DNA from: Candidatus Giovannonibacteria bacterium
Lineage (GTDB): Bacteria; Patescibacteriota; Minisyncoccia; JACPKW01; UBA11713
Direction: 5' to 3'
Length of the DNA stretch: 64,000 bases
Assembly (NCBI GenBank): GCA_016186825.1
Contig: JACPKW010000004.1
Location: forward strand, 130,237 to 194,236
A model generated the notes under the pieces. The model was given only the letters and a program-made list of their open reading frames with translations, ran no database searches and had not been told where the DNA came from. This document shows positions 30,401 to 58,324 of this stretch, one piece after another (position 1 is the first letter of the stretch; the number at the start of each line of letters is the position of its first letter). The translations under genes were made by a program, and so were the position numbers.

Positions 30401-33200
30401 CGGAGTTCAAATCGCAACTTCAAACACAACTTCATATTCTGACACTGGGCTTGCTCCGTCGACCGCATATTCATATACAGTTTCGGCATTCGATGCGGCT
30501 GGCAACAACTCTTCGCAATCAACAAGCGCAAGTGCAACAACGCAACCGGCGTCTGTTCCCGTAGATACCACCGCTCCTGTTATTTCAGGAATATCATCTT
30601 CTGGAATTACATCTTCTTCTGCAAATATTTTGTGGAACACAAACGAGATGTCTACGCACCAAGTCGAATACGGGCCAACTGCTTCCTATGGACAGTTAAC
30701 CACAGAAAATACGGCAATGATGACTTCTCACTCCGAAACAATTTCGAATCTTCAGTCTGGCTCAACATACAACTTCCGCGTAAAGTCCAAAGATGCCGCA
30801 GGAAATCTTGCAATCTCCTTAAATTCGAGCTTCAAGACTTTGAATGCTCCGGATAACATTCCACCAAATGCGATAAGCAATCTTTCGTCATCCGAGATCC
30901 AAACAAATTCTCTCAAGCTTTCTTGGACTTCGCCCGCAGATCCGCCTTCGAATTCAGCCGCGGACAAATATGATATCCGATACTCTATGAGCTTGCTTGG
31001 CGAATCAAATTGGCAGCAGGCTACCAGAGTTACCGGAGAGCCCGCGCCAGCCTCGCCCGGAGCCAATCAATCATATATTTTGGCTGGGCTCGCTCCACAG
31101 ACTACATATTATATTGCAATCAAATCTTCGGATGCGAAAAATAACGATTCGGCGCTCTCAAATGTATTACAAATTACAACTTTAGCTTCCGAACCTCCGC
31201 CCGCTATTCTTTCAGTGTCGCCGATTACTGCAAACATCCAGGACGTAAATTCTACTTTGCCGGGCGTCCAGTTCTACGAAGGAATGACGGTCAGATATTC
31301 TTCTTCTGCTTCGGGGCATGCGTCTTGGGAGTGGCTGTATTCGGTCAACAACGGAACACCAATTTCGTATCTTAAGGGCACAGGCAATGTGGAAGATGCC
31401 ATGTTCAAATATCCTTCAGGCAGTGCGGGAACTTCATACAAATGGATTTTCAGAGCTTCAAGTGGGACACAAATTAAAGAAGAGGCTCTCGATGTTTCGA
31501 TTATTTCTAGGCAGACTGGGACAAATCCAGCAGTTATTTCAAATATCGCTTTCGATATCGGACAAACTAGCGCAACTGTTACTTGGGAAACCGATATTCC
31601 TGCCTCCACTCAATTGGAATTCGGCGCACATAATCTTCTCGGCTCCCTGTCGCCTGAACTAAATTCGACCTCTTTGGTAACCGCGCACTCTGTGACTTCT
31701 TCAAATCTTATTCCTTGCGCCCGTTATTACTTCCGCGTCCGTTCGCGCGATTCTTCCAATAACATTTCCGCTGGCGCTCCATATTCATATTCTACCAAAG
31801 GCTGTCTTGGCGGGGCTGATGTTGCATCAAGCACAGAAAAACTTATCCGGCGCGCCGAAGGCGGAACGATCAAGCAGAAAGATAAGGGCTCTGGTTTGAC
31901 GATCACTGCTCCGATAAATTTTGCCTCCGATGATGCGGTATTCCAAATTCAAAAGCTTTCTAATAAAGTTTTCAGCACCGCGCAACTTCCTCAAAACAAA
32001 AAATTAATCGGCGATCACATATATGAATTGAAAGCTCTCTCGGATTCTTCTGTGGCAATTTCAGCTTTTGCTGATTCGCTCACGCTCACAGTCAAATATA
32101 ATTCTGCTGATCTGGGGAATATTAATCCTTCTACACTCCGGCTTTACCGCTGGGTATCTTCAAGTAACTCCTGGCAGGTTCTGTCGTGCACTGAAAGCAC
32201 TGCAGATGCTCAAGTGATCTGTTTGACAAATTCATTTTCATCATATGCTTTGCTCGGCGATGAAACGCAAACAACTGGAGGCGGGGGATCTTCGGGTGGC
32301 GGAACTTCAAGCGGGGGAGGAGGTATTATTATGCAAAGCGTTTCTGCTCCAGCCTCCTTCAAAGCTATCGGCGCCCCGAACCAGATTATTCTTTCCTGGT
32401 CTAATCCTAAAGATGCAAATTTTGTCCGCGCGCGCATTATTAAAAACCAAAACAGGGTTCCTCTTTCCGCAAATGACGGGGAAATAATATATGAAGGCGC
32501 AAAAGAAGAATTTATTGATACGAACGTAACTCTCAATGCCGTTTATAATTATGGCGTCTATGCGCTAGATCGGAATTTAAATGCCTCTGCGCTTTCGACA
32601 CTTATCGTTAAGGCTGGCGAAAAGAGCGAAGCAGACGCCCTTAAAGCTTTGAGCCAAATTGTTTCTGCCTCGAAAGTGACTGCACCAGTGACTTCCCCTG
32701 GGGCGTTATTAACTGGTCCTTTTGCTTTCGGTATTCGAAGCGAACAAGTAAAAATTCTTCAGGAATGGCTCGCGCGCGACAAATTGATCTATCCAGAGGC
32801 AAAAATCACTGGCTATTACGGCCCCGCAACATTTGCCGCAGTCAAACGCTTTCAGAAGAAATATGGAATTGCCCAAATTGGAATCGCAGGCCCCAAGACC
32901 AGAATGAAATTGAACGCACTTTATAATTCATCAGTAGTGTCCACACCTGAAGCGCCAAGTTCGAGCGAGACAATTATACTTCTCCGCGGTCCATTTTACC
33001 TCGGTGCCAGAGGTAATGAAGTTAAAGTGCTCCAGCAGCTGCTCGCGAAAGATAATGCCATTTATCCGGAAGGACGCGTAACTGGATATTACGGAGCACT
33101 TACATTTCAAGCTGTGAAAAGATTTCAGGCTAAATATGGAATTTTACAAACAGGAATCGCAGGGCCTAAAACCAGGGCTAAACTAAACGAGATATATTAA
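21459..33200 (+). CDS. giant surface protein (3913 aa): divergent N-terminal anchor module, 3 LamG domains, at least 5 fibronectin-III repeats, Kelch-like propeller region, unassigned ~800-aa central region, Gly-rich linker, two C-terminal peptidoglycan-binding (PG_binding_1-like) domains
   Basis: [24 protein letters not shown] anchor. LamG domains recognised by HWKFDEG...[10 protein letters not shown], three times. FN3 repeats [26 protein letters not shown]...AAYDAAGN. Tandem C-terminal LxGPFxxGxRxxxVKxLQxxLA...YGPATFxAVKRFQxKYGI repeats. Confidence 0.85.
   Translation: [3913 protein letters not shown]
22369..22640 (+). repeat. intragenic FN3-encoding DNA repeat, copy 1 of 4 (~270 bp, high identity)
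   Basis: Near-identical nucleotide blocks (ccggatactac...gcaacgacgcag) recur at 22663, 26235 and 30274. Confidence 0.7.
22663..22937 (+). repeat. intragenic FN3-encoding DNA repeat, copy 2
   Basis: Same block as copy 1, translated [44 protein letters not shown]. Confidence 0.7.
26235..26507 (+). repeat. intragenic FN3-encoding DNA repeat, copy 3
   Basis: Translated [57 protein letters not shown]. Confidence 0.7.
30274..30548 (+). repeat. intragenic FN3-encoding DNA repeat, copy 4
   Basis: Translated [60 protein letters not shown]. Confidence 0.7.
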
Positions 33201-33220: not shown

Positions 33221-33958
33221 CTAGTCTGGTTTTTCCAAAGCGTTTTTTTCGAACGCTTTGACAATCGGACCTAGATCGCCGTCGAGCATGCGCTCGATAT
33301 TATGAAAGCTTTTCTTTATGCGGTGATCCGTGATCCGATCCTGCATAAAATTATACGTGCGGATTTTTTCTGAACGGTCCTGTGTTCCGATCTGCTCGCG
33401 GCGTTCTTTTGAGAGCGCTTCGGATTCTTTGCGATTTTTTTCGTCGAGAAGTTTTGCGCGCAGAACCCCCAGCGCCTTTTCCCTGTTTTTTTGCTGTGAA
33501 CGCTCTTCGCGGGAGGAAACCACGATTCCAGTTGGTTTGTGGAGAATTCTTACAGCGGACTCAACTTTGTTTACATTTTGGCCGCCTGGACCGCCTGCGC
33601 GCGAGAAAGTAACCTCGAGATCGGATTCTTTCACCTCGATTTCTTTTTCCGCGGCGGCTTTTAAAATTGCGACAGAGGCAGTAGAGGTATGAATTCTGCC
33701 CGACTTTTCTGTTTTTGGAATCCTCTGAATGCGATGCACTCCCGATTCCTGCTTAAGCGATTTCCATACGTCCGGACCGGAAATTTCAGCGACAACTTCT
33801 TTATAGCCTCCGAGGTCGCTTTTGGATTCATCAAGCAGTTTGAAAGACCACTGCCTGCTTTGAGAAAAATTTTGGTACATTCTTAAAAGCTCTCTCGCAA
33901 AGAGAGAGGCTTCCTGACCGCCTGCACCGGCGCGTATTTCCAAAATTACAGTCTCCAT
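33221..33958 (-). CDS. prfA: class I peptide chain release factor, RF1-like but lacking N-terminal domain 1 (245 aa)
   Basis: GGQ motif [11 protein letters not shown]. The RF1-type tripeptide region [14 protein letters not shown] aligns with PxT. The protein aligns with RF1 residues ~115-360. Its start ATG overlaps the rpmE stop (TAATG). Confidence 0.75.
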
Positions 33959-37618: not shown

Positions 37619-38902
37619 GTGCAAGAATTTATGCCGAACCAAATTAAACCGGATCCAACCAAGCCGGAAATTTTAATTTTGGGCGGTGGATTTGGAGGTG
37701 TGCGCGCCGCATTAAGACTCGCGCGGAAGCTTCCGAGCTCGAAAATCACCGTTGTGGATAAAAGAAAATACCACGGCTATTATCCGGATTTATACGAACT
37801 TGCGGCGGCTGTTTTCCCGAAAAAAAATAATCTCGGCAAAAAAGATTTTCTTAAGCTCAAATCAACTGTTGCGCTTCCATTTAAATATATTTTTTCAGGT
37901 TTTCCGAATATCAAATTTGTCGAAGGCACGGTGCTCGATATCGATTTTGAAGCCGGCAAGGTTTTTCTTGAAAATAATGAAGCGCTTTCATACAACTTTT
38001 TGATTCTTGCATTGGGGTCCGAAACTAATTTCTTTAATATTCCGCATTTGGGCGAGAAAGCGCATGAGCTGAAAAATACTACCGATGCTTTGAATATCAG
38101 GAGCGCTTTTGAAGAAATTTTGGATACTCGCGGAAAAAATACAATTATTTCGGTGATTATTGCGGGCGGGGGATTTACGGGATGCGAACTTGCGGGAGAG
38201 CTTGCGCGGAGCCTTAATGCGTTTGCGAGAATATACAACCATCCTCGAGAAAATTTTTCAATTACGATGATTGAAGGATCAAGCGTTCTGCTCGGGCCTA
38301 CCGATCCATGGATTCAAAAGAAAGCAAAGGAGCGTCTGGAAGATTTGGGGGCAATAATAAAATTGAACAGTTTTATTGTTGACGTGAAAGGCGATAAAAT
38401 TGTTTTGAAAGACGGATCTGAAATCAGATTCGATCTCTTGATTTGGACAGCGGGCGTGCGCCCGAATCAGCTTTTGGAAAACATCAAGGTTAAGCTCGAA
38501 AAAAACGGCTGCGTTGGAACGGATAAAAATCTCCGCGCGCTCCCTTTTAAAAATGTATTCGCTATAGGCGATATGTGTTTTTCAAAAAACCCTGAAACAG
38601 GGAAGCCACTTCCAATGACTGCGCAGGTTGCCATGCTCGAAGCAGACTATATTGGAAAATATATTTCAAAAATGGTCTCTGGAAAAAATTATAAAGACTT
38701 TGAGCCTACGGTAGGGCGTTTTATTATTCCGCTTGGAGGGAAATATGCTCTGGCGGATCTCGGCATTATGAAAATTTCCGGTTTTCTTCCGTGGTTTTTG
38801 AAACGGATCGTTGCTCTTAAATATTTCGCATCAATAATGCCTTTTGGAAGAGCTTTTAAAATCTGGAAACGAGGACTTGGAATTTTTATTGCAAACGATT
38901 GA
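37619..38902 (+). CDS. type II NADH dehydrogenase (NDH-2)-like FAD-dependent pyridine nucleotide-disulfide oxidoreductase
   Basis: Two Rossmann motifs, ILILGGGFGGV and IIAGGGFTGCELAGEL, plus a C-terminal amphipathic region. Confidence 0.75.
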   Translation: MQEFMPNQIKPDPTKPEILILGGGFGGVRAALRLARKLPSSKITVVDKRKYHGYYPDLYELAAAVFPKKNNLGKKDFLKLKSTVALPFKYIFSGFPNIKFVEGTVLDIDFEAGKVFLENNEALSYNFLILALGSETNFFNIPHLGEKAHELKNTTDALNIRSAFEEILDTRGKNTIISVIIAGGGFTGCELAGELARSLNAFARIYNHPRENFSITMIEGSSVLLGPTDPWIQKKAKERLEDLGAIIKLNSFIVDVKGDKIVLKDGSEIRFDLLIWTAGVRPNQLLENIKVKLEKNGCVGTDKNLRALPFKNVFAIGDMCFSKNPETGKPLPMTAQVAMLEADYIGKYISKMVSGKNYKDFEPTVGRFIIPLGGKYALADLGIMKISGFLPWFLKRIVALKYFASIMPFGRAFKIWKRGLGIFIAND

Positions 38903-39904: not shown

Positions 39905-41188
39905 ATGAAGAATAAAAATAAAATAAAAGTTGGCAAGAGGGTTTATCTGGATCATGCGGCGGCAACGCCAATGGATCCGCGCGTTTTTGAAGCAATGGAG
40001 CCTTTTTGGGTGAAAAATTTTGGAAATGCCGGCGGACTTTATGAAGAAGGAAGAATCGCGAAAGAAGCAGTGCAAAAATCCCGCGAAGCGATTGCACGCT
40101 TGATCTTTGCAAAGCCCGAGGAAATTATTTTTACTTCCGGAGGAACGGAAGCAGATAACCTTGCTATTTTTGGAACTGCTAATTTTTTTAAAAAAGGGCA
40201 CATAATTACTTCCAAATTTGAGCACCATGCAGTTTTGAATCCCTGCTTGGAGCTCGAAAAGCGCGGATTTGACGTTACTTATCTTGAAGTTGGTTCGGAG
40301 GGAATCGTAAATCCGGAAGACTTTAAAAAAGCATTGCGCGCCGATACAGTCTTGGTTTCCATAATGTATGCGAATAACGAGATAGGAACAATCCAGCCGA
40401 TCGCCGAGATAGGGAAAATAATCCAAAACTACAGACTACAATCTGCAAACTCCAGACTGATTTTCCATACCGATGCCTGCCAGGCGGCTGCGTATTTGGA
40501 TATGAACGTAAATGAACTCGGGGTGGATTTGATGACTGTAAACGGTGGAAAAATTTATGGGCCGAAGGGCGCTGGTTTTCTTTATAAAAAAAGCGGAGTG
40601 AAAATAACTCCGATGATTTTCGGCGGCGGGCAGGAAATGCGAATGCGTTCAGGGACTGAAAGCGCTCCTTTAATTGTCGGAATGGCAAAAGCTTTTGAAA
40701 TAGCCGCGCTCGAGCGCGAAAAAGAATCAGCGCGATTGTGCGAGCTAAGGGATTATTTCATCTCTGAACTTTTCCAAAAGATTACGAAGATTGTTCTAAA
40801 CGGACATGACAAAAAAAGATTGCCTAACAACGTGAATGTCTCGATTCTCGATATAGAAGGGGAAGCTCTGATCCTTTTCATGGACGCGCATGGCGTTTCA
40901 TTTTCTACGGGTTCTGCTTGCACTTCGGAATCGCTTGATCCTTCCCACGTAATTTTGGCGCTCGGAAAACCTTATGAATTTGCGCATTCATCCATGCGTT
41001 TCACTTTGGGGCGAAGCACAAACAAAGAAGATTTGGATTATGTCCTAAGCGAACTTCCCAAAACTGTTGCATGGCTCCGGCGCGTCTCTCCGCTAGAGCT
41101 TGATCCGAACGCAGCTTCCATGTCGCATCCCGAAGCGTTTGCAGGAGAAAATTTAAGAGTTAAGGCGAAATCTAAAAGTTATAAGTAG
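39905..41188 (+). CDS. iscS: cysteine desulfurase (IscS/NifS class)
   Basis: VYLDHAAATP, SGGTEADNLAI, and a PLP-Lys region SIMYANNEIGT. Confidence 0.85.
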   Translation: MKNKNKIKVGKRVYLDHAAATPMDPRVFEAMEPFWVKNFGNAGGLYEEGRIAKEAVQKSREAIARLIFAKPEEIIFTSGGTEADNLAIFGTANFFKKGHIITSKFEHHAVLNPCLELEKRGFDVTYLEVGSEGIVNPEDFKKALRADTVLVSIMYANNEIGTIQPIAEIGKIIQNYRLQSANSRLIFHTDACQAAAYLDMNVNELGVDLMTVNGGKIYGPKGAGFLYKKSGVKITPMIFGGGQEMRMRSGTESAPLIVGMAKAFEIAALEREKESARLCELRDYFISELFQKITKIVLNGHDKKRLPNNVNVSILDIEGEALILFMDAHGVSFSTGSACTSESLDPSHVILALGKPYEFAHSSMRFTLGRSTNKEDLDYVLSELPKTVAWLRRVSPLELDPNAASMSHPEAFAGENLRVKAKSKSYK

Positions 41189-41224: not shown

Positions 41225-41884
41225 ATGAATGAAAACAAGGCCCCTGAGGTCATCAATCAATTTACAGGTGAAAAATGGTATTATTCCGATACGGTTAAAG
41301 AACATTTTTTTCATCCACGCAATCTTTTATGGGAACGGCCGAAAAATCAAAATGAGTTCGATGCGGAGGGAATGGTGGGAAGCCCTGCCTGCGGAGACAT
41401 GATGCAGATGTGGATGAAAGTTGATCGGAATACTGAACGAGTAATAGATTTGAAATGGAAAACATTCGGGTGTGCTTCGGCGATAGCGGCAACTTCAATT
41501 TATTCTGTGATTCTTACGGAAAATGGGGGAATGACATTGGATGATGCCCTCAAAGTGAAGCCGCAGGATGTAATGAAGCGTTTGGGAGGACTCCCGAATA
41601 GAAAAATTCATTGCTCTGTTTTGGCCGACAAAGCATTTCAAAAAACAGCCAACGACTATTTCCGTAAAACTGGACAAAATCATAGAATAGTAGTTGAAGG
41701 GGCGAGAGTAGTTGATCCCACGCTTAATATTACGGATAAGGATATTGAAGAAGCTGTTTTGGAAGGAGCGCAGACGCTCGACGAAGTTCAGAAGAAATTG
41801 AAAGTTGGAATTGGCGCTTCGGAAGAAGTTAAAACCGATATCGAGTCACTCGTCAGATTCTATTCGGATAAATATTATGGATAA
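41225..41884 (+). CDS. IscU/NifU-type Fe-S scaffold protein with C-terminal extension
   Basis: The three scaffold cysteines lie in GSPACGDMMQ, FGCASAIA and IHCSVLA. Confidence 0.8.
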   Translation: MNENKAPEVINQFTGEKWYYSDTVKEHFFHPRNLLWERPKNQNEFDAEGMVGSPACGDMMQMWMKVDRNTERVIDLKWKTFGCASAIAATSIYSVILTENGGMTLDDALKVKPQDVMKRLGGLPNRKIHCSVLADKAFQKTANDYFRKTGQNHRIVVEGARVVDPTLNITDKDIEEAVLEGAQTLDEVQKKLKVGIGASEEVKTDIESLVRFYSDKYYG

Positions 41885-41954: not shown

Positions 41955-42218
41955 ATGTCGGAAGAAAATAACCCAGAACAAATAAATAAAACAGTTGAGC
42001 CCGAGATATCTAAGATTGTCGTGGACCGAGATTTATGCATTGGGGCCGCCTCGTGCGTTGCGATTGCGCCCGGGGTCTTTGCTTTGGATAATGAAAACAA
42101 AGCTTATGTTATTGATGAAAAAGGCGCAGACAACGAAACAATTCTCCTAGCCGCCCAGTCATGTCCCACAAGAGCAATTCTTTTATACGATAAAGATGGC
42201 AAACAAATATACCCGTAA
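41955..42218 (+). CDS. small single-cluster ferredoxin
   Basis: CIGAASCV...SCP cysteine pattern. Paralog of 53027..53293. Confidence 0.7.
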   Translation: MSEENNPEQINKTVEPEISKIVVDRDLCIGAASCVAIAPGVFALDNENKAYVIDEKGADNETILLAAQSCPTRAILLYDKDGKQIYP

Positions 42219-42253: not shown

Positions 42254-42844
42254 ATGAGAGAAATAAAACCACTCAAATATAAAGAACTTAAGGGTTTATC
42301 CGAAAAACAGCTGAAGGAACATCATGACGTTCTTTATGCCGGTTATGTCAAGAAAATTGCGGAGATAGAAGAAAAGCTAAAAAACACAGACGCTAATTCC
42401 GCAAATGCCACTTATTCTGATTTGCGCGAACTGAAAATGGAAGAAACATTCGCTTTAAACGGCGTGAAATTGCATGAAGGCTATTTTGACAATATGATAC
42501 CAGATGGGCCAAAACCGTCCGGTAAAATTTTGGGCTTGATCGAGCGGGATTTCGGCTCTTATGAAAAATGGGAAAGCGAATTTAAAGCGCTGGGGCTCGC
42601 GGCGCGGGGTTGGGCGATCCTCGCTTATGATCTCGACGAAAAAAAATTAAAAAATATTCTTTGCGATTCGCATAATCAGGGAGGGGTTTGGAACAGCATC
42701 GCGCTTTTTATAATGGATGTTTACGAGCATGCCTATTTTATTGATTATGCCACAGGCAGAAAGTCATACATTGAGGCCTTTTTTCGAAATCTGAATTGGG
42801 AATTTGTTAACACCCTGATTGAGAAATACGGCATTGAAACCTAA
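42254..42844 (+). CDS. Fe/Mn superoxide dismutase
   Basis: HHDVLYAGY, and the C-terminal DVYEHAYFIDYATGRKSYIEAFFRNLNWEFV (D-x-W-E-H-A-Y-Y family signature). Confidence 0.8.
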   Translation: MREIKPLKYKELKGLSEKQLKEHHDVLYAGYVKKIAEIEEKLKNTDANSANATYSDLRELKMEETFALNGVKLHEGYFDNMIPDGPKPSGKILGLIERDFGSYEKWESEFKALGLAARGWAILAYDLDEKKLKNILCDSHNQGGVWNSIALFIMDVYEHAYFIDYATGRKSYIEAFFRNLNWEFVNTLIEKYGIET

Positions 42845-48206: not shown

Positions 48207-48280
48207 ATAATATAATATTCTCTAATAAAAGCTTATTAGGGCTTTTTTGTTTTGTGACGTATTTGCGCTTTAAATTTTAA

Positions 48281-48467
48281 TATGCGTGGGTGGCGGAGTG
48301 GTCAATCGCATCCCGCTGTAGGCGGGACGACCTGCCATTTAGCTTAAAGAGAGTTAAAATTTATTGTTTATATATGCGTGGGTGGCGGAGTGGTCAATCG
48401 CATCCCGCTGTAGGCGGGACGACCTGCCATTTAGCTTAAAGAGAGTTAAAATTTATTGTTTATATAT
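48281..48467 (+). repeat. two tandem ~91-bp direct repeats, each beginning with the first ~27 nt of tRNA-Tyr (5'-fragment pseudo-tRNA), then a CCCGC-UGUAG-GCGGG hairpin
   Basis: Units at 48281-48371 and 48372-48463 are identical. GCGTGGGTGGCGGAGTGGTCAATCGCA is identical to the 5' end of the intact tRNA-Tyr at 48468. Confidence 0.75.
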
Positions 48468-48555
48468 GCGTGGGTGGCGGAGTGGTCAATCGCACGTGGC
48501 TGTAAACCACGCGCCCTGACGGGCTACGTAGGTTCGAATCCTACCCCACGCACCA
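48468..48555 (+). tRNA. tRNA-Tyr (anticodon GUA), long variable arm, CCA encoded
   Basis: Acceptor GCGUGGG/CCCACGC, anticodon arm CGUGG-CUGUAAA-CCACG, variable stem GCCC/GGGC, T-arm GUAGG-UUCGAAU-CCUAC, discriminator A, then CCA. Confidence 0.8.
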
Positions 48556-48594
48556 ATATCAAACTTTCCGATTTTTGCCCGACCGATTCGGCCG
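48554..48594 (+). repeat. 41-bp direct repeat, left copy, abutting the tRNA-Tyr 3' end
   Basis: CAATATCAAACTTTCCGATTTTTGCCCGACCGATTCGGCCG is identical to 51336-51376. Confidence 0.75.
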
Positions 48595-48811
48595 AGCGAG
48601 GCGAGGCGAACCTTTCAAACTTGAGAATTCCTTTCTGAGGCAGTATTCTTGAATTAGTCCGAACCCCGGTAGTAAAGCAAAGCTTACTACGGGGCACGTC
48701 GCATTTCTCCGCCTGCGACGGTGAGGAAGTCCCCCCAGCGAATCCGCCAGCTGGCGGACGGAAAGGCGGCGGCTTGTCCTGAGCGAAGTCGAAGGGAGCC
48801 GCACCGCTCAA

Positions 48812-48934
48812 AACCGCCAAACCTGCCTGCCGGCAGGCAGGGAACCCGTTAAAAACATCGGCTCGAATCATATTTTAATTTTGGGGGAAGAAAATTTTTA
48901 ATCATATAGTCGAAAATTATTAAATAATAAAGAA
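48812..48934 (+). promoter_or_regulatory. recurrent GC-rich upstream element, copy 1: CCGCCAAA + 20-nt perfect palindrome CCTGCCTGCCGGCAGGCAGG (48822-48841) + conserved AT-rich leader ending ...AAAATTTTTAATC
   Basis: The same ~100-bp module precedes the ORFs at 48935, 49747 and 50465. Confidence 0.6.
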
Positions 48935-49646: not shown

Positions 49647-49746
49647 TTGCCGCCAAACCTGCCTGCCGGTAGGCAGGGAACCCGGAAAAATAATCGGCTT
49701 GAACCATGTTTTAACTGAAAGAAGAAAAGAAAAATTTTTAATCAAT
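49647..49746 (+). promoter_or_regulatory. recurrent upstream element, copy 2 (palindrome imperfect: CCTGCCTGCCGGTAGGCAGG)
   Basis: Aligns with copies 1 and 3 over ~100 bp. The ATG follows TTTTTAATCAAT directly. Confidence 0.6.
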
Positions 49747-50366: not shown

Positions 50367-50464
50367 TTGCCGCCAAACCTGTCTGCCGGTAGGCAGGGAA
50401 CCCGGAGAAAAACATCGGCTCGAACCATATTTTGAATTTTGGGAAAAGAAAAATTTTTAATCCT
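50367..50464 (+). promoter_or_regulatory. recurrent upstream element, copy 3 (CCTGTCTGCCGGTAGGCAGG)
   Basis: Aligns with copies 1 and 2. The ATG at 50465 follows TTTTTAATCCT. Confidence 0.6.
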
Positions 50465-51159: not shown

Positions 51160-51192
51160 TGCCGCCAAACCTGCCTGCCGGCAGGCAGGGAA
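51160..51192 (+). repeat. recurrent element, truncated copy 4 with perfect palindrome, followed by GC-rich sequence related (partly inverted) to 48700-48790
   Basis: GCCGCCAAACCTGCCTGCCGGCAGGCAGGG. Downstream GCCGCCTTTCCG is the reverse complement of CGGAAAGGCGGC at ~48770. Confidence 0.55.
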
Positions 51193-51335: not shown

Positions 51336-51376
51336 CAATATCAAACTTTCCGATTTTTGCCCGACCGATTCGGCCG
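51336..51376 (+). repeat. 41-bp direct repeat, right copy
   Basis: Identical to 48554-48594. Confidence 0.75.
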
Positions 51377-51528
51377 CGCTTTGCACTGCGAGGCATTGAC
51401 TTTTCCAATGCGGCGCTAATGCGCAGCTATAAAATTCTTTTATTTGTGCCTTTTAAAATTTATATGGAGCTGGTTTAATAAATAGGGCATAGTTCATAAG
51501 TTGAAGAGCTAAGATAGGGAGGTGCTCT

Positions 51529-52900: not shown

Positions 52901-52974
52901 GCCTGGGTAGCTCAGGTAGATAGAGCATACGCATGGTAAGCGTAAGGTCGGCGGTGCAAGTCCGCCCCCAGGCT
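52901..52974 (+). tRNA. tRNA-Thr (anticodon GGU)
   Basis: Acceptor GCCUGGG/CCCAGGC, anticodon arm UACGC-AUGGUAA-GCGUA, T-arm GGCGG-UGCAAGU-CCGCC. Confidence 0.8.
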
Positions 52975-53026
52975 CAAGTGTAAAACTTTTCTTGATTCGG
53001 GTTTTTGGTAGAATATAATTAAGTCA

Positions 53027-53293
53027 ATGGCGATAAAAAAAATCTTAGTAAACAGAGATCTATGTATAGGCGCGGCGAGCTGCGTTGTTTCTGCTGGGAG
53101 CGTTTTTGAACTCGACTCAGAAAATAAAGGAGTGTTAAAACAGCATGGCGGCGTAAAAAATTCAGGACCAGCGAAAAAAATGCAACTCGAAAATTCTGCA
53201 ATTTCCGATGAAGATCTCATGCTCGCCGCCCAATCTTGCCCCACGAAGGCAATTTTTTTATACAATGAGGCGGATAAACAGATATATCCTTGA
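53027..53293 (+). CDS. small single-cluster ferredoxin (paralog of 41955..42218)
   Basis: NRDLCIGAASCV...AAQSCPTKAIFLY...KQIYP, nearly identical ends to the first copy. Confidence 0.7.
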   Translation: MAIKKILVNRDLCIGAASCVVSAGSVFELDSENKGVLKQHGGVKNSGPAKKMQLENSAISDEDLMLAAQSCPTKAIFLYNEADKQIYP

Positions 53294-54528
53294 AAATGAA
53301 ATCTGTCCGCTACTTGATCATCGGAGGGGGGATTGCCGGAACAACTGCGGCGGAAACAATTCGCTTGCGGGATAAAGAAGGATCAATTTCTATCATTTCG
53401 GACGAACCTGCTCGGCTTTATTCGCGGATTATGCTTTCGAAGCCAAATTTTTTTTTGGAGAAGATTTCTTTTGACCAAATTTGGCTAAAAACCGATTCTT
53501 GGTATCAGGAAAAAAATATTGAACTTCTTCTGGGCAAGCGAGCAGTCTCGCTCAATCCGGCTTTAAAAAAAATTGTGCTCGATGGCGGCACTGAAATTAT
53601 TTATGAGAAGCTCCTGCTTGCATATGGGGGAGAAACAAGAAAGTGGGAGCTCAAAATTCCTGTAAGCGGCGTTCATTATTTAAGATCTCTTGCGGACGCG
53701 AAGGAAATTATTGATGCAGTTAAGATGGCGAAGAAAGCAGTTGTAGTCGGCGGAGGTTTTGTAAGTTTCGAAATGTGCGAAATGCTTCGCCTTGCCGGGC
53801 TTGAAGTTTCGCTTGTGATGAGAGAAAAGCATTTTTGGTCAAACCTTCTGGACGAAGCTTCCGGCGCGATGATTGAGAAGGCTCTGGAAACGCGTGGCGT
53901 AAAAATTTATCGCGAATCGGAAGTGGGGCGCGTTTTATGGGATGAAACAGTCGAAGAGGCGATATTAAAAAACGGCGAATCCATCCCATGCGATTTAATC
54001 ATTGTCGGGATTGGGCTTAATTTTAAACTTGATTGGATTAAAAACGCGGGGATTGAAACTGGCCGCGGAATTTTAGCAAACGAATATCTCGAAACGAATC
54101 TCCCCGATATTTGGACCGCAGGTGATATTGCAGAATTTAAGGACTTAATTTTGGGTGAGCGGGTTCAGCTCGGAAATTGGGTAAACGCGCAAATGCAGGG
54201 CAGACGCGCGGCTTTGAATATGACAGGAGAGCATGTGCCGTTTAAAATGGTCTCTTTCTATACGACCACCGCTTTTGGCATAAACGTCGCTTTCATTGGT
54301 GATGTAAGGCCGCTTGAAGGCCGCCAAATAATAACGCGGGGAAATCCTGAAAATGGCTGGTATTCGAGAATAATTTTAAAAGACGATGAAATCATCGGGG
54401 CTACTTTGATAAATCGAACAGCTGAACTTGCTCCCATTTCAAAGTTAATTGAAAATGACATAAATATTTCAGGGCATGAAACCGATCTCGCAAATCCCGC
54501 TTTTGAACTTAAAACTTTAGTTTCTTAA
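53290..54528 (+). CDS. FAD-dependent pyridine nucleotide-disulfide oxidoreductase (ferredoxin/rubredoxin-NAD(P)+ reductase-like)
   Basis: YLIIGGGIAGTTAAE and AVVVGGGFVSFEMCEML dinucleotide-binding motifs, plus TAGDIAEF. Confidence 0.75.
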   Translation: MKMKSVRYLIIGGGIAGTTAAETIRLRDKEGSISIISDEPARLYSRIMLSKPNFFLEKISFDQIWLKTDSWYQEKNIELLLGKRAVSLNPALKKIVLDGGTEIIYEKLLLAYGGETRKWELKIPVSGVHYLRSLADAKEIIDAVKMAKKAVVVGGGFVSFEMCEMLRLAGLEVSLVMREKHFWSNLLDEASGAMIEKALETRGVKIYRESEVGRVLWDETVEEAILKNGESIPCDLIIVGIGLNFKLDWIKNAGIETGRGILANEYLETNLPDIWTAGDIAEFKDLILGERVQLGNWVNAQMQGRRAALNMTGEHVPFKMVSFYTTTAFGINVAFIGDVRPLEGRQIITRGNPENGWYSRIILKDDEIIGATLINRTAELAPISKLIENDINISGHETDLANPAFELKTLVS

Positions 54529-54530
54529 TT

Positions 54531-55031
54531 ATGGCTGAAAACGATTTAGAAAAACCAAAAATAAAGGTTGGGTGGTTTTCTTTTTCATGTTGCGAAGACA
54601 ACACAGTGGTTTTCACGGAGTTGATGAACGATCACTGGCGAGATTGGAAAAAACTTTTCGATTTCAGGCATGCCCGAGTTTTGAAAAGCCAGAATATTCT
54701 TGATGAGCTGGATGTCGCATTTATCGAAGGCGCAATCGCTTCCGACCAACAAGCGGAGAGATTGCGCCAAATCCGCGAAAAATCCAAAAAACTTGTTGCG
54801 GTTGGCGCCTGCGCTGTTGTGGGCATGCCTGCTGGGCAGCGAAATTATTTCAGTGAAGGGCAAAAAAGGGAAATCGAATTTTTGACGGCGCGTTTTGCGG
54901 CTTTGCCGAAAGTTCTGAAGGTTTTCGAGGTTGTTAAGGTTGATGCTGAAGTTGGAGGATGCCCCATGGATGGCAATAAATTTTTGGAAGCAGTTAATGG
55001 TCTTGTTAGTGAGCTGCAAAATATAAAATAA
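54531..55031 (+). CDS. [NiFe]-hydrogenase small subunit, NuoB-like (single proximal 4Fe-4S cluster)
   Basis: SFSCCEDN (adjacent CC as in NuoB / group-4 small subunits), VGACAVVG, and GGCPMD (GCPP-like). Confidence 0.65.
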   Translation: MAENDLEKPKIKVGWFSFSCCEDNTVVFTELMNDHWRDWKKLFDFRHARVLKSQNILDELDVAFIEGAIASDQQAERLRQIREKSKKLVAVGACAVVGMPAGQRNYFSEGQKREIEFLTARFAALPKVLKVFEVVKVDAEVGGCPMDGNKFLEAVNGLVSELQNIK

Positions 55032-56323
55032 TGCACAATAATTTTGATTTAACTTTGGATCGTTTGACCAAAGTAGAAGGATCTGCTTCGCTTGAAATTC
55101 GTGTGCGAGAAAATAGAGTTGAGCACGTGCATTTTAAAATTACAGAATTCAAGCGATTTTTTACAAAAGCGATGGAGGGGAAGCCCGTCATCGCGCTTCC
55201 TCAACTTTTGTCGAGGATTTGCGGGACATGCTCTAATGCGCATATTCTTGCTTCTATTGAGGCGTGCGAGAATGCTTTAGGCATTAAGCCTTCGGAGCAG
55301 ACGATGGCGCTGCGCGCGCTCACAATGTATGGACTCAACATCCGTGACCACGCTTTGCATCTTTATCTTTTTGCGATGCCGGATATTTTTGGGAAAGACG
55401 CTTTTCTTGATTTTGATGAAAACGATCCTATTGAAGGCGAGCTTTTGAATGACGCTTTTGAAATTAAAGCCGCGGGGAATTTTCTTTCTACGCTTGTGGC
55501 TGGGCGGTCTGTCCACGCGCTCTATCCGAATATCGGGGGTTTTAATCAGATCCCAGGCGCTCCTGAAATTAAAATTGCAATCGAAAAACTGGAAGCGATT
55601 CGGCCCGCGGTAATCAGGCTTGTAAAAGTATTTGAAAATTCCCCGTTTCATTTTGATCGTAATACAAATTTTATGGCGCTTGTCCCAAAAGACCGTTATG
55701 GTTTTATTGACGGTGATATTTTAACATCAAAAGGGGAGCGAGTTCCTGAAAAAAACTTCCGCGAGCATCTTGAGCGCGTAGTTCTGCCGTATTCCCAGGC
55801 TTCGGCTTATAAACACGAAGGCGAAGCATATATGGTTGGCGCGCTCTCGAGAATGAATCTCGCGAAAGATCTTTTGCATCCGCGAACAAAAGAAACGCTC
55901 GCAACCACTTTGAATTTATTCCCGTCGACCGACGTCTTTTATACAAATATTGCGCAGACCGTTGAGATTTTGCATTCTATTGATGATGCGATTGAAATTT
56001 TGCAAAATCGAAAATTTGAGCCGGAAGCTTTGCAGAAAGGAACAAACAGGGAAGCAGTTGGCGTTGGCGTTGTTGAGGCTCCGCGAGGAACCTTATATCA
56101 CATGGTGAAATTAAAGAAGGATGGGACTGTTGAATCGGGGGAGGTTATTGTTCCCACGGGCCAAAATCAGGTGAACATTGAAGAAGATGTCGCGCGTCTG
56201 GTGGAAGATTTAATTCCCGAATCTTCAAAGGAAGAAATAGTTTTTGAAATTGAGAAATTAATCCGCGCCTACGATCCCTGCATGAGCTGCGCCGCGCATT
56301 TTCTCAAAGTGGATTGGAAGTAA
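55031..56323 (+). CDS. [NiFe]-hydrogenase large subunit
   Basis: L1 motif RICGTCSNAH near the N-terminus and L2 motif DPCMSCAAH seven residues from the C-terminus. Confidence 0.75.
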   Translation: MHNNFDLTLDRLTKVEGSASLEIRVRENRVEHVHFKITEFKRFFTKAMEGKPVIALPQLLSRICGTCSNAHILASIEACENALGIKPSEQTMALRALTMYGLNIRDHALHLYLFAMPDIFGKDAFLDFDENDPIEGELLNDAFEIKAAGNFLSTLVAGRSVHALYPNIGGFNQIPGAPEIKIAIEKLEAIRPAVIRLVKVFENSPFHFDRNTNFMALVPKDRYGFIDGDILTSKGERVPEKNFREHLERVVLPYSQASAYKHEGEAYMVGALSRMNLAKDLLHPRTKETLATTLNLFPSTDVFYTNIAQTVEILHSIDDAIEILQNRKFEPEALQKGTNREAVGVGVVEAPRGTLYHMVKLKKDGTVESGEVIVPTGQNQVNIEEDVARLVEDLIPESSKEEIVFEIEKLIRAYDPCMSCAAHFLKVDWK

Positions 56324-56668
56324 GCTCGCTCGCATTGGATCAAAGTTTGGCGGAATGGCGATGACAGTGATTTTTTTTAATTTTCCGATTTTTTGGAGAT
56401 GGCGCAGATTTGAATAAGCGTCAAAGTCATGCATAGTCAGGCGGGGAGGGGGCCTGAAATTTTTTAGATCGTAAAACATTTGCGGCTTTGAAATATCCTC
56501 GACAGTATCAATAATTGTTATTTCTGCTGGGATTTCCCATTCTTCGTTCGGATCGAGAACTTCAAACTCAATTTCAGGAAATATTTTTTGAAGTTCGGGC
56601 AGAATTCGAATAGGAAGTGAATCCATTTCGAGATCGGGATTTCCGAAAACAAAAATTTGCTTTTTCAT
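56258..56668 (-). CDS. hydrogenase maturation endopeptidase (HycI/HybD-like). Start moved to the internal Met that overlaps the upstream gene stop
   Basis: MKKQIFVFGNPDLEMDSLPIRIL...IIDTV is the GNxxxxDD-type maturation protease pattern. ATGA overlap with 56665..57396. Confidence 0.6.
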   Translation of the reverse strand: MKKQIFVFGNPDLEMDSLPIRILPELQKIFPEIEFEVLDPNEEWEIPAEITIIDTVEDISKPQMFYDLKNFRPPPRLTMHDFDAYSNLRHLQKIGKLKKITVIAIPPNFDPMRASLLPIHFEKMRGAAHAGIVGAD

Positions 56669-57396
56669 ATTGCTTGATTTGCAAGCGCGATATGCCGGAG
56701 CGTATATTTTTTTAACTCCTCCGCTTGCAGGGGTGAGATAACTTCGCATGGGACGTTCCAGTGTATGGATATGATGTCACCTGATTTAAGCTGTTCAATA
56801 TCATACGATGTCTCAAGATTTCTTGAAATTTTTTTAGAGACCGGTTTTCCAAGCATCAGTTTGCAGCCGTTTAAAATCAGAGGCTCCGTCAAAACTTTTA
56901 TCGCAGGACCGGAGACTTCTTTTACTTCGCCCCAGCTTACCCTGCATGAATCCATGCTTTTGAGCGTATGCGCTTCTTCGAAGTGCCCAGTCCGCTTCCA
57001 GATTGAAAAAACATGAAAAGAATGGTGCGGGACAGCTCCCTGCCTAATCTTATCGCTAACTATTTCAAAGTCTTTTTTGCCGATGCGCTTTGGAATTTTA
57101 TGCATTTCATCAAGGTGCCTCCAGAAAGTTTTTTTCTCTATTTTGTCAAGAAGATTGTTTCCGATCCAATATGCCTCAACAACGCGGTCATCAAAAGGAT
57201 CTTTGATTTTATTTTCATGCGCGATGAAATTCAAATATGGAAACATTGTTTCAAAAGCGCCGAGAAGAACGCGAAGTCCTGGGTCCGATTCGTCCTCCTT
57301 TAGATAATCAAGCATCTCCCGATTTTGATCGGGACCGCAGTAGTGGAGGCGGTTTGGGCCAAAGGCGTATCGCGAACAGCGTAAAACACCGTCCAT
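56665..57396 (-). CDS. hypothetical protein, co-oriented and overlapping with the hydrogenase maturation protease
   Basis: 243 aa, no motif recognised. A 4-nt start/stop overlap suggests an operon. Confidence 0.55.
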   Translation of the reverse strand: MDGVLRCSRYAFGPNRLHYCGPDQNREMLDYLKEDESDPGLRVLLGAFETMFPYLNFIAHENKIKDPFDDRVVEAYWIGNNLLDKIEKKTFWRHLDEMHKIPKRIGKKDFEIVSDKIRQGAVPHHSFHVFSIWKRTGHFEEAHTLKSMDSCRVSWGEVKEVSGPAIKVLTEPLILNGCKLMLGKPVSKKISRNLETSYDIEQLKSGDIISIHWNVPCEVISPLQAEELKKYTLRHIALANQAI

Positions 57397-57397
57397 G

Positions 57398-58324
57398 TCA
57401 GGAAATATGCTTTAATGGAGCAGTTTTGGGGAGATTTGTTTTCGCAAACACAATTACGAACAATACTCCGAGTAGAAGAAGCGCGGAACTTGCAACTTGA
57501 TTGAAAGGCAACGTTCCTTGGACAAAAACAGCGGAAAGTATATTGGTAATGAGCGTCGCCGGAACTAAGAGGGCTGCAACATGCGAAGCCGGGGCCATCT
57601 TGAGCGCCGAATACCATGTTGTAACGTATCCAAGGAGAAATAGGGATGAGAGCAAGGTCCAGCCCCACTCAACTTGATTCAGGGAAGTTATTGCGTTAAA
57701 GGGAGCGCCGGAAATTGATAAATAAATCAAAAGCGCGAGAGATCCGAAAACCATCCGCGCTGACGCGACAGTTAAGCTCGAAATATTTTTGAGCGCGATT
57801 TTTGCAATGATGCTTTCGATCGCCCAAAGAATTGTTGCAAAAAGAATCAGGAGTTCGGCAAAATTAAATTTGAAACCTGCGAACCCGCCTACAAATAGGT
57901 TCGCCGCGAATAAAGCTCCCACGCCGAGCCATTGCATGCCGGAGAATTTTTCTCCCAAAATTGGAATAGCCAAAATCGCAACCCACAGGAACAAGGATTT
58001 ATGGATAAGTCCCGCATTAATCGCCGATGAATGCTCTAAGCCTGAAAAAAATAAAGCGAAGGGCAAAGCGCCGCCAACCAAGCCGACTGAAATAAGCATG
58101 AGCCAGTCCTTGCGGTTTAAAGTTTTAAGCTCGGAGAGTTTTTTAAACAAAACAAGGCCGGAGATTAAAAAAACCGCCACTAGGGCGTTTTTTAAAGTCG
58201 TAAAAAGGACGGGATCTTTTATGGCTGTGACCGCGATTTTTGAAATAAAATTCGCAATTCCCGATATCAGAGCTGCGGTTAGCGCAAGATAAGTTCCCAA
58301 TCGCACGGCGTTCATTAGTCTCAT
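57398..58324 (-). CDS. EamA/DMT-family transporter (10 TM)
   Basis: Two homologous 5-TM halves with Gly-rich helices. Confidence 0.75.
   Translation of the reverse strand: MRLMNAVRLGTYLALTAALISGIANFISKIAVTAIKDPVLFTTLKNALVAVFLISGLVLFKKLSELKTLNRKDWLMLISVGLVGGALPFALFFSGLEHSSAINAGLIHKSLFLWVAILAIPILGEKFSGMQWLGVGALFAANLFVGGFAGFKFNFAELLILFATILWAIESIIAKIALKNISSLTVASARMVFGSLALLIYLSISGAPFNAITSLNQVEWGWTLLSSLFLLGYVTTWYSALKMAPASHVAALLVPATLITNILSAVFVQGTLPFNQVASSALLLLGVLFVIVFAKTNLPKTAPLKHIS

Follow-up and report, generated by a model that had tools for sequence, protein, structure and literature searches.

A probable hyd2-type [NiFe]-hydrogenase related to group 3b, with a one-cluster small subunit, in a Candidatus Giovannonibacteria genome

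What kind of hydrogenase combines a conventional nickel-binding large subunit with a small subunit of only 166 residues, a ferredoxin and a flavoprotein? The question is raised by a locus at positions 53,027 to 57,396 of a 64,000-nucleotide (64-kb) stretch of contig JACPKW010000004.1 from Candidatus Giovannonibacteria, an ultra-small groundwater bacterium; this stretch is referred to here as the window. A sequence-only reading had taken this locus for a minimal NuoB/NuoD-type, group 4-like [NiFe]-hydrogenase that lacks membrane subunits. Our analysis leads to a different class. The locus probably encodes a cytoplasmic, group 3b-related [NiFe]-hydrogenase of the hyd2 type known from the Candidate Phyla Radiation (CPR, or Patescibacteria), with a one-cluster core, a ferredoxin and an NAD(P)H flavoprotein that replace the diaphorase, and a dedicated pair of maturation proteins.

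Four genes of the locus lie on the forward strand, encoding an 88-residue mono-cluster ferredoxin (53027..53293), a 412-residue FAD/NAD(P)H flavoprotein (53290..54528), the 166-residue small subunit (54531..55031) and the 430-residue large subunit (55031..56323). The start of the flavoprotein gene overlaps the stop codon of the ferredoxin gene, and because all four genes either overlap or lie 2 nt apart, we take them to form one operon; a tRNA-Thr gene (52901-52975) lies just 5' of it. Two further genes, for a protease-like protein (56258..56668) and a DUF6390 protein (56665..57396), are convergent to the operon on the reverse strand, and the 3' end of the former overlaps that of the large-subunit gene by 66 nt. 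Reading of the open reading frames (ORFs) confirmed all six, with the coordinates and motifs previously described, as well as the ferredoxin and the NAD(P)H-type flavoprotein at the start of a unit predicted to be co-transcribed with the hydrogenase genes.

The large subunit, recognized by the Pfam family NiFeSe_Hases, carries both nickel motifs that had been reported, RICGTCSNAH (L1) and DPCMSCAAH (L2), the latter followed by a short conserved tail, FLKVDWK. For comparison, we drew on species-representative genomes for 32 loci that encode large-subunit relatives, mapped them by tblastn and included 8-kb flanks; most are labeled CPR or Patescibacteria, and the rest carry no specific label (individual loci are cited below by L numbers). 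Both motifs and all four nickel-binding cysteines are kept in every full-length homolog of this set, and for this reason the enzyme is likely active.

Among NCBIfam models, the large subunit scores best with ShyA (244.5 bits, 1.8e-72) and HydA (217 bits, 4e-64), and models of other groups follow with 125 bits (FrhA), 108 bits (VhuA) and 15.8 bits (NuoD). Its best match in the PDB is the alpha subunit of Pyrococcus furiosus soluble hydrogenase I (SHI; 9nez_D, 205.7 bits, 1.2e-59, residues 6-426), a group 3b enzyme, ahead of, in descending order, Mvh (group 3c, 155 bits), NiFe-HydABCSL (134 bits), Hox (group 3d, 98 bits), Frh (group 3a, 88 bits) and group 1 enzymes (approximately 77 bits). No score reaches the NCBIfam equivalog cut-offs (700 and 880 bits), and the protein is accordingly regarded as a relative of the 3b enzymes and not as their ortholog. 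In direct comparisons with E. coli proteins taken from annotated records, HycE reaches 21.7 bits and NuoCD gives no match, and the last residue of L2 is histidine in the window protein versus arginine in HycE (DPCYSCTDR). On these scores the large subunit classifies as group 3b-related and not as group 4, and the NuoB/NuoD-type assignment does not stand. The sequence-only reading had itself named a 3b or 3d large subunit, together with a canonical CxxC motif misread in the small subunit, as grounds for abandoning that assignment. The large subunit is of the former kind; the small subunit was not misread.

The small subunit (Pfam Oxidored_q6) aligns solely to positions 3-153 of the HydD model (261 positions), and a family profile built from 23 members matches SHI delta best in the PDB (1.7e-21), followed by Vhu/Mvh, Frh, HoxY and HydS, with no NuoB or group 4 chain matched at E <= 0.001. 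Because the alignment stops at HydD position 153 and the profile matches SHI delta, we interpret the protein as a 3b-type small subunit cut down to its proximal-cluster domain. It contains exactly four cysteines (C20, C21, C94 and C144), and in most family members the proximal cluster is predicted to be held by the C20/C21 pair together with C94 and C144. The family is large, with more than 1100 homologs (clusters at 90% identity); the best 120 are mostly 159-178 residues long, and the named ones among these 120 are all from CPR bacteria. Small subunits of different CPR lineages are 72-84% identical, and that of the window matches a hypothetical protein of Candidatus Giovannonibacteria at 100% identity, which places the window in a CPR genome.

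The tandem cysteine pair is genuine, as had been claimed. In a MAFFT alignment, S19-C20-C21 shares columns with S62-C63-C64 of E. coli NuoB, and the pair reads CC in 109 of the best 120 homologs and CS in the other 11; C20, E22 and D23 show little or no variation. The canonical CxxC of SHI delta (SCYGC), VhuG (GCSGC) and a homolog from a Micrarchaeota archaeon (GCEGC) aligns with C21 and N24. The CPR clade thus appears to have lost the second cysteine of the CxxC and gained one directly before the first, which is the same rearrangement as in NuoB. There, both tandem cysteines ligate cluster N2 (Cys45/Cys46 of Thermus thermophilus Nqo6). The 11 CS variants have only three cysteines in the conserved core, so that their fourth ligand would be a noncysteine residue, with S21, E22 and D23 as candidates, or their cluster would be of the 3Fe type; D23, in a C20-x-x-D23 arrangement like that of FrhG, is a possible fourth ligand in these variants.

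The Micrarchaeota homolog belongs to one of the 32 loci (L029:7461-9287 (+), from the metagenome-assembled genome (MAG) contig MNVE01000009.1), which encodes the same truncated small subunit (177 residues) with its canonical CxxC beside a large subunit 48% identical to that of the window. A protease-like gene is present there, with no DUF6390 gene nearby. The locus suggests transfer between CPR and DPANN, and a truncation that preceded the CC motif.

Could the enzyme nevertheless be a minimal soluble derivative of a group 4 energy-converting hydrogenase of the NuoB/NuoD type that lacks its membrane subunits? The tandem cysteines align exactly with NuoB C63/C64, the small subunit would hold a single cluster as NuoB does, and membrane subunits are indeed missing from the locus. 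The similarity of the proteins as a whole argues otherwise. In addition to the large subunit, with 205-245 bits to 3b references and a histidine at the end of L2, the small subunit scores 49 bits with SHI delta versus 4.8 bits with E. coli NuoB and 0.6 bits with E. coli HycG, and its profile matches no NuoB or group 4 chain in the PDB at E <= 0.001. Nor can the CC pair serve as the group 4 signature it had been taken for, because HycG itself reads CGGCNGC, which is a CxxC. Since overall similarity to NuoB is insignificant and the truncated archaeal relative retains CxxC, the pair is best interpreted as having arisen within the group 3 lineage, by convergence with NuoB and not through shared ancestry. 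We consider a group 4 derivation exceedingly improbable, and group 4/NuoBD homology was rejected by the direct comparison with E. coli HycE, HycG, NuoB and NuoCD.

The view of the enzyme as soluble, without membrane or antiporter subunits, has held up. Searches with phmmer using HycC and HycD, along with Pfam scans, revealed no NuoH/NuoL/Mrp-like membrane subunit in the 64 kb, and no HycD-like (NuoH-type) subunit was found by phmmer in the 32 related loci. The sole match to HycC (NuoL-type) in those loci is a weak, marginal one over a stretch of approximately 100 residues (L013, E 9e-4), and the hydrogenase genes lie 4 kb away from it. Beta/gamma subunits resembling AsrA/AsrB are likewise absent from the operon, and none occurs among the ORFs scanned elsewhere in the window.

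An enzyme of this composition has been described before. Jaffe et al. (2020, BMC Biol 18:69; PMC7304191) split the 3b-related hydrogenases of CPR bacteria into hyd1 and hyd2, and characterized hyd2 as a long branch with a small subunit averaging 164 residues and no beta/gamma subunits, accompanied in some genomes by a PF07992 protein, a small Fe-S protein and a HypC-related family. In their words, "its function remains uncertain", and the subunit composition was also left open (PMC7304191). In all respects tested, the window locus agrees with this description and would be a further member of hyd2, not a new type; the assignment was made against the published description, with the 58-72% identity of the large subunit to those of 28 CPR loci of the same architecture (all among our 32) standing in for a tree. 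Because the clade was published in 2020, the novelty of the locus is limited. What is added to hyd2 here are the tandem-cysteine motif, the three-cysteine ferredoxin, counts of conserved synteny, one gene fusion, the linkage to oxidoreductase and acetyl-CoA synthetase genes, and fold assignments for the protease and DUF6390 proteins. Beyond the hyd2 description, the searched literature yielded nothing relevant to the truncated small subunit.

How, then, would electrons enter or leave such a core? Because the small subunit has no medial or distal cluster, the next electron carrier would have to be a separate protein, for which the co-transcribed ferredoxin is the obvious candidate. This protein (Pfam Fer4_15 and Fer4_13) has three invariant cysteines in the arrangement C13-x2-A16-x2-C19 ... 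C71-P, the first part of which reads C13-I-G-A-A-S-C19, and Ala16 is invariant as well (12 homologs). Its profile matches ferredoxin I of Desulfovibrio africanus (6e-10) and the ferredoxin of P. furiosus (1e-7) in the PDB, with A16 at the position of the second cysteine of the former and of Asp14 of the latter. In mono-cluster ferredoxins with the motif CxxXxxC...CP, cysteine or aspartate at X gives a 4Fe cluster and any other residue a 3Fe cluster; with alanine at this position, the rule predicts a [3Fe-4S] cluster, and we infer this type for the ferredoxin of the operon. A 16-residue insertion is present in the protein, and only in the subtype found in compact operons.

A second three-cysteine ferredoxin, of the subtype without the 16-residue insertion, is encoded elsewhere in the window (41955-42218 (+)), with genes for NifS-like (39905-41188) and NifU-like (41225-41884) proteins directly 5' of it, a second Pyr_redox_2 flavoprotein at 37619-38902 and an Fe/Mn superoxide dismutase at 42254-42844. 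In other loci, NifS, NifU, ferredoxin and flavoprotein genes form one block upstream of the hydrogenase.

The flavoprotein of the operon matches Pyr_redox_2 (1e-52) and, more weakly, Rubredoxin_C and Reductase_C (1e-8 and 1e-7), and contains two dinucleotide-binding GxGxxG motifs (IIGGGIAG and VVGGGFVS). Its PDB neighbors are ArR (3lxd), PuR (3fg2), an NADH dehydrogenase of the NirB family (3klj), BphA4, AorC (8c0z_E) and putidaredoxin reductase, and its best NCBIfam models are PadH (220 bits; cut-off 475), HcaD and AndAa, all with scores far under their cut-offs. It classifies as a ferredoxin/rubredoxin-reductase type member of the pyridine nucleotide-disulfide oxidoreductase family.

Together, these components lead us to propose that the catalytic core would consist of the large subunit and a small subunit keeping the proximal Fe-S cluster only, and that the nonhomologous ferredoxin and FAD reductase would take the place of the absent medial and distal clusters and of the HydB/HydG (beta/gamma) diaphorase. 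Electrons would pass, in either direction, between NAD(P)H, FAD, the ferredoxin cluster, the proximal cluster, the Ni-Fe site and H2. The ferredoxin pool may also connect the hydrogenase to a 2-oxoacid:ferredoxin oxidoreductase.

The arrangement of these genes at the related loci can be set beside this proposal. Small- and large-subunit genes are adjacent in almost all of the 32, one ORF lying between them at L019. A flavoprotein gene accompanied by one for a three-cysteine ferredoxin lies upstream in 18 of the 32, just 5' of the small-subunit gene in approximately 10 and roughly 5 kb off in approximately 8. Three genes occupy the 5-kb gap in opposite orientation, one for an ADP-forming acetyl-CoA synthetase and two for a 2-oxoacid:ferredoxin oxidoreductase (alpha and beta subunits). 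At one locus (L030:4784-6631 (+)), an in-frame ORF of 615 residues joins flavoprotein and small subunit by a linker of approximately 30 residues, a fusion that suggests physical coupling of the two proteins.

The oxidoreductase and acetyl-CoA synthetase families occur beside the hyd2 genes, in divergent orientation, in 14-15 of the 32 loci, which include L006, L010, L012-L014, L016, L020-L023 and L032 (for example, L021:3162-7500, reverse strand). A short-chain dehydrogenase gene sometimes occurs with them, and none of these genes was found among the ORFs scanned in the window. Because the oxidoreductase and the synthetase are frequent neighbors, we place the enzyme in fermentative redox balance, in agreement with the fermentative setting suggested earlier. 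Oxidation of 2-oxoacids would yield acyl-CoA and reduced ferredoxin, acyl-CoA would be used to make ATP, and surplus electrons would leave as H2; an obligate fermenter would in this manner dump reducing equivalents as H2, or recapture them. Pfam scans of the other large ORFs of the window identified enzymes of glycolysis and fermentation, giant surface proteins and NifS/NifU, with no respiratory genes among the ORFs scanned, a content in keeping with a CPR origin.

The same neighborhood also allows for a purely ferredoxin-dependent, H2-evolving hydrogenase, in which case the flavoprotein would either belong to the oxidoreductase, as a PadH-like subunit or partner, or act on its own as an NAD(P)H:ferredoxin oxidoreductase that keeps the two pools in balance. 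Such a reading is in keeping with the oxidoreductase alpha/beta and acetyl-CoA synthetase genes that adjoin about 15 of the 32 loci, with PadH as the best NCBIfam match of the flavoprotein, and with the absence of the flavoprotein near the hydrogenase in several loci, including one that has the ferredoxin alone (L028). It is harder to reconcile with the window itself, where the flavoprotein gene lies within the hydrogenase operon and the ORFs scanned over the 64 kb included no 2-oxoacid:ferredoxin oxidoreductase gene, or with the L030 fusion. In addition, the PadH score remains far under its cut-off, and a three-cysteine, [3Fe-4S]-type ferredoxin would be an unusual low-potential donor for proton reduction. 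We consider this alternative rather unlikely.

Several points nevertheless weigh against the NAD(P)H-linked hydrogenase that we favor. Among the 21 loci whose upstream sequence extends over the full 8 kb, the flavoprotein is present in 15 and absent in 6, and L028 has the ferredoxin without it; given this absence, flavoprotein and ferredoxin may be loosely associated with the hydrogenase and not obligate subunits. The L030 fusion was seen only once, in a co-assembled MAG, where loss of a stop codon or faulty assembly could explain it. PadH is a subunit of phenylglyoxylate:NAD+ oxidoreductase, a 2-oxoacid oxidoreductase complex, and with this best match the flavoprotein could serve such an oxidoreductase instead. 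The choice between NAD and NADP is not settled by the residues after the second Rossmann strand, where most flavoprotein homologs read hydrophobic-Arg-Glu in a register that is ambiguous relative to NADH-specific ArR. Finally, [3Fe-4S] ferredoxins are usually too positive in potential for H2 evolution, and H2-driven reduction of NAD(P)+ is therefore an equally plausible direction. Taking these points into account, we still read the enzyme as a soluble, probably bidirectional hydrogenase that would exchange electrons with NAD(P)H and ferredoxin in a fermentative organism.

The two convergent genes would provide a dedicated maturation pair, formed by an endopeptidase of the HybD/HycI fold and a HypC-domain protein. 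The protease-like ORF spans 56258-56749 on the reverse strand; its true start is most likely Met28, which gives a product of 136 residues, identical to NCBI HYW53_02210. This protein has no Pfam or NCBIfam match at E <= 0.01, the PF01750 model included, and its family profile finds only chance matches among PDB sequences. Its AlphaFold2 model (pLDDT 81), when searched with Foldseek, returns HybD as the best match (1cfz_A, E 7e-6, TM 0.60), then HycI (2kml, 2e85), and also 3pu6 and 5ttx; five of the six best matches are hydrogenase peptidases. D16, D54 and H80 are invariant in 44 homologs and follow each other as in the metal triad of HybD, a correspondence of order and not of superposed residues. 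The identification of a convergent, HycI-like protease made from the sequence is thus supported at the fold level, and we regard the protein as a predicted, divergent maturation endopeptidase.

The 243-residue product of the second convergent gene had been called unknown. Its convergent orientation stands; the protein itself is recognized by Pfam as DUF6390, with a C-terminal third that resembles HypC. A helical N-terminal domain with invariant C7, C20 and H125 is followed by a HypC-like OB-fold barrel and a helix, in which the invariant residues C151 and H212 align with Cys2 and His51 of HypC, respectively. The HypC-like cysteine of DUF6390 is internal, behind a domain of 150 residues, and not at position 2 near a free N terminus. 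Sequence-based tests were negative: the DUF6390 profile finds only chance matches in the PDB, hhalign against the single E. coli HypC gives a nonsignificant probability of 2.6%, and the HypC family hidden Markov model does not recognize the protein, for which Pfam returns DUF6390 alone. Because of these negative tests and the internal cysteine, the protein is not a canonical HypC, though its predicted fold indicates that it would work like a HypC-domain protein; both this assignment and that of the protease derive from predicted folds and one alignment. No mention of DUF6390 was found in the searched literature.

A shorter relative of DUF6390 is found at other loci. Directly after the large-subunit gene in 14 of them lies an ORF of approximately 149 residues (for example, L015:9325-9774 (+), L014:9381-9872 and L021:9354-9800) that has no Pfam or NCBIfam match and is a short DUF6390 paralog by hhalign (probability 95%, E 2e-8). 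It keeps the N-terminal cysteine region and the HypC-like end, and is absent from the window.

The protease-like gene is convergent downstream in approximately 25 of the 32 loci and DUF6390 is present in more than 21, and near most hyd2 loci these two are the only maturation genes. Searches of the six-frame translation of the 64 kb with E. coli proteins (phmmer), together with Pfam scans of the other large ORFs, found no HypA, HypB, HypD, HypE or HypF, and the same phmmer searches found none in the 32 related loci with their 8-kb flanks. The earlier statement that the window has no hyp genes is accurate for these five; a hyp-related function would be present through DUF6390. The missing Hyp proteins, in organisms whose genomes are strongly reduced, could indicate that the locus is an inactive or nonhydrogenase relic, for instance a redox sensor or scaffold, in an organism without the machinery for the Ni-Fe(CN)2CO site, of which HypD, HypE and HypF are required by an active enzyme. 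Such a relic would hardly be expected to keep both nickel motifs and their four cysteines in every full-length homolog, to retain protease-fold and HypC-domain genes beside the hydrogenase in most loci, or to have small subunits so similar across CPR lineages, and the Hyp searches covered flanking sequence and not whole genomes. We judge a relic highly improbable, and continue to regard the locus as that of a likely active hydrogenase.

If the enzyme is active, how is its cofactor assembled? At one related locus (L016:10203-12855 (-)), a HydG gene and a gene for a HypC-HydE fusion sit where DUF6390 sits in other loci. The HydG protein scores 562 bits (NCBIfam cut-off 312) and has a C-terminal CxxCx22C motif, and the fusion scores 49.5 bits for HypC (cut-off 48) and 287 bits for HydE (cut-off 254.6). 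A metagenome scan with the HypC-HydE fusion protein returned seven loci, and wherever flanking DNA suffices, the HydG and HypC-HydE pair adjoins a 3b-type [NiFe]-hydrogenase. The pair was noted in L035, L036, L038, L039 and L040, of which L035 is the same locus as L016 and of the hyd2 type. L038 and L040 have 3b-like large subunits; the small subunit of L040 is full-length (260 residues), and that of L038 is cut by the contig end.

In [FeFe]-hydrogenases, the Fe-CO/CN unit is made by the radical-SAM enzymes HydG and HydE. Because HydG/HypC-HydE pairs and DUF6390 paralogs adjoin [NiFe]-hydrogenase genes, we raise, as a speculation that is distinctly unlikely to hold, an unconventional assembly of Fe(CN)2CO in CPR bacteria, in which 3b-type [NiFe]-hydrogenases would mature by a noncanonical route that bypasses HypD, HypE and HypF. 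If this were the case, [FeFe]-type chemistry or a new scaffold would supply the Fe(CN)2CO unit of the [NiFe] site, a HypC domain would deliver it, and the window locus would be the DUF6390 version of such a system. No literature linking HydG/HydE, HypC and CPR was found in our searches.

Next to the DUF6390 gene, the window encodes a 308-residue EamA-family (DMT) transporter on the reverse strand (57398..58324; Pfam EamA 3e-34). A gene of this family lies beside the DUF6390 or protease gene in 13 of the 32 loci, which makes it a conserved neighbor of DUF6390; that it forms part of the hydrogenase system is uncertain, and transport of a metal or metabolite is one possibility for its role. A database entry of 424 residues (P0386) is annotated as one protein with both EamA and DUF6390 domains.

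Other features of the window were noted alongside this analysis. Three tandem 92-nt units occupy 48275-48555, of which the first two are 98% identical and repeat the 5' part of a tRNA-Tyr gene and its upstream sequence; the third alone is recognized as a tRNA-Tyr gene (48468-48555). A repeat of up to 65 nt, confined to intergenic sequence, with the 20-nt GC-rich palindrome CCTGCCTGCCGGCAGGCAGG is present in four copies between short genes upstream of the hydrogenase operon (48812-48878, 49648-49714, 50368-50434 and 51160-51192), with further matching segments at 48554-48597 and 51336-51379. Positions 8800-33200 hold a run of very large proteins of secreted or surface type, including proteins of 1193, 1274 and 945 residues with Laminin_G_3 domains, an S8 subtilase of 625 residues and an ORF of 3913 residues at 21459-33200. 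Close by, a release-factor ORF of 245 residues (33221-33958 (-)) begins in the middle of its PCRF domain (profile positions 101-194), which would be consistent with a programmed +1 frameshift of prfB.

H2 turnover is one of the few energy traits predicted for the very reduced CPR/Patescibacteria, and it underlies ideas on metabolite exchange with their hosts. With more than 1100 small-subunit clusters, hyd2 is widespread, and the locus provides a testable model for it, in which a one-cluster core, with a ferredoxin and a reductase in place of the diaphorase, is tied to 2-oxoacid oxidation and substrate-level ATP formation. A tandem-cysteine site like that of complex I in a group 3 enzyme bears on how cluster ligation tunes potential, and the HypC-domain proteins and HydG/HypC-HydE neighbors prompt the question of how organisms with genomes this small put the Ni-Fe cofactor together.

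Compared with known systems, the window locus is closest to hyd2 (PMC7304191), with which it shares a CPR host, a 3b-related large subunit, a small subunit of similar length (166 versus approximately 164 residues) and the lack of HydB/HydG; no feature distinguishing it from hyd2 was found. Next are the group 3b enzymes, comprising SHI (HydABGD) and SHII (ShyABCD) of P. furiosus and Hyh of Thermococcus kodakarensis. This group provides the best matches for the large subunit, at 1e-59 over approximately 420 aligned residues, and for the N-terminal domain of the small subunit, and these enzymes are likewise cytoplasmic, with a nicotinamide-linked flavoprotein likely in each. The window enzyme differs from them in that its small subunit lacks the C-terminal half with the further clusters (3b delta subunits have approximately 240-260 residues), an unrelated ferredoxin and flavoprotein apparently stand in for the beta/gamma subunits, the proximal CxxC has become CC, and scores remain far under the equivalog cut-offs (244 versus 700 bits).

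On the side of maturation, the DUF6390 protein differs from HypC, HybG and HupF in carrying its HypC-like domain C-terminal to a helical domain of 150 residues with conserved cysteine and histidine residues, and in matching no HypC model. The 136-residue protein resembles HybD and HycI in fold, yet goes unrecognized by the Pfam and NCBIfam models.

In size, the small subunit resembles HoxY (group 3d; 5xf9_C, 189 residues) and HydS of the electron-bifurcating NiFe-HydABCSL (7t2r_E, 179 residues), which retain no cluster but the proximal one and hand electrons directly to a separate Fe-S/flavin module. These proteins are more distant (5e-14 and 9e-11, respectively, versus 1.7e-21 for SHI delta), and their partner modules are NuoE/F/G-like, in contrast to the ferredoxin reductase and ferredoxin found here. 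With NuoB (Nqo6/PSST), the small subunit shares S-C-C in the same columns, the loss of the second CxxC cysteine and a single cluster, whereas their overall similarity is insignificant (4.8 bits) and the second cysteine of the pair is replaced by serine in 11 of the 120 homologs of the window protein. Lastly, the pairing of a flavoprotein that has Pyr_redox_2 and Reductase_C in this order with a small single-cluster ferredoxin recalls putidaredoxin reductase, BphA4, ArR (3lxd), PadH and AorC, the last from a tungsten aldehyde oxidoreductase. In those chains the terminal partner is an oxygenase, a P450 or an oxidoreductase, whereas here it would be a [NiFe]-hydrogenase.

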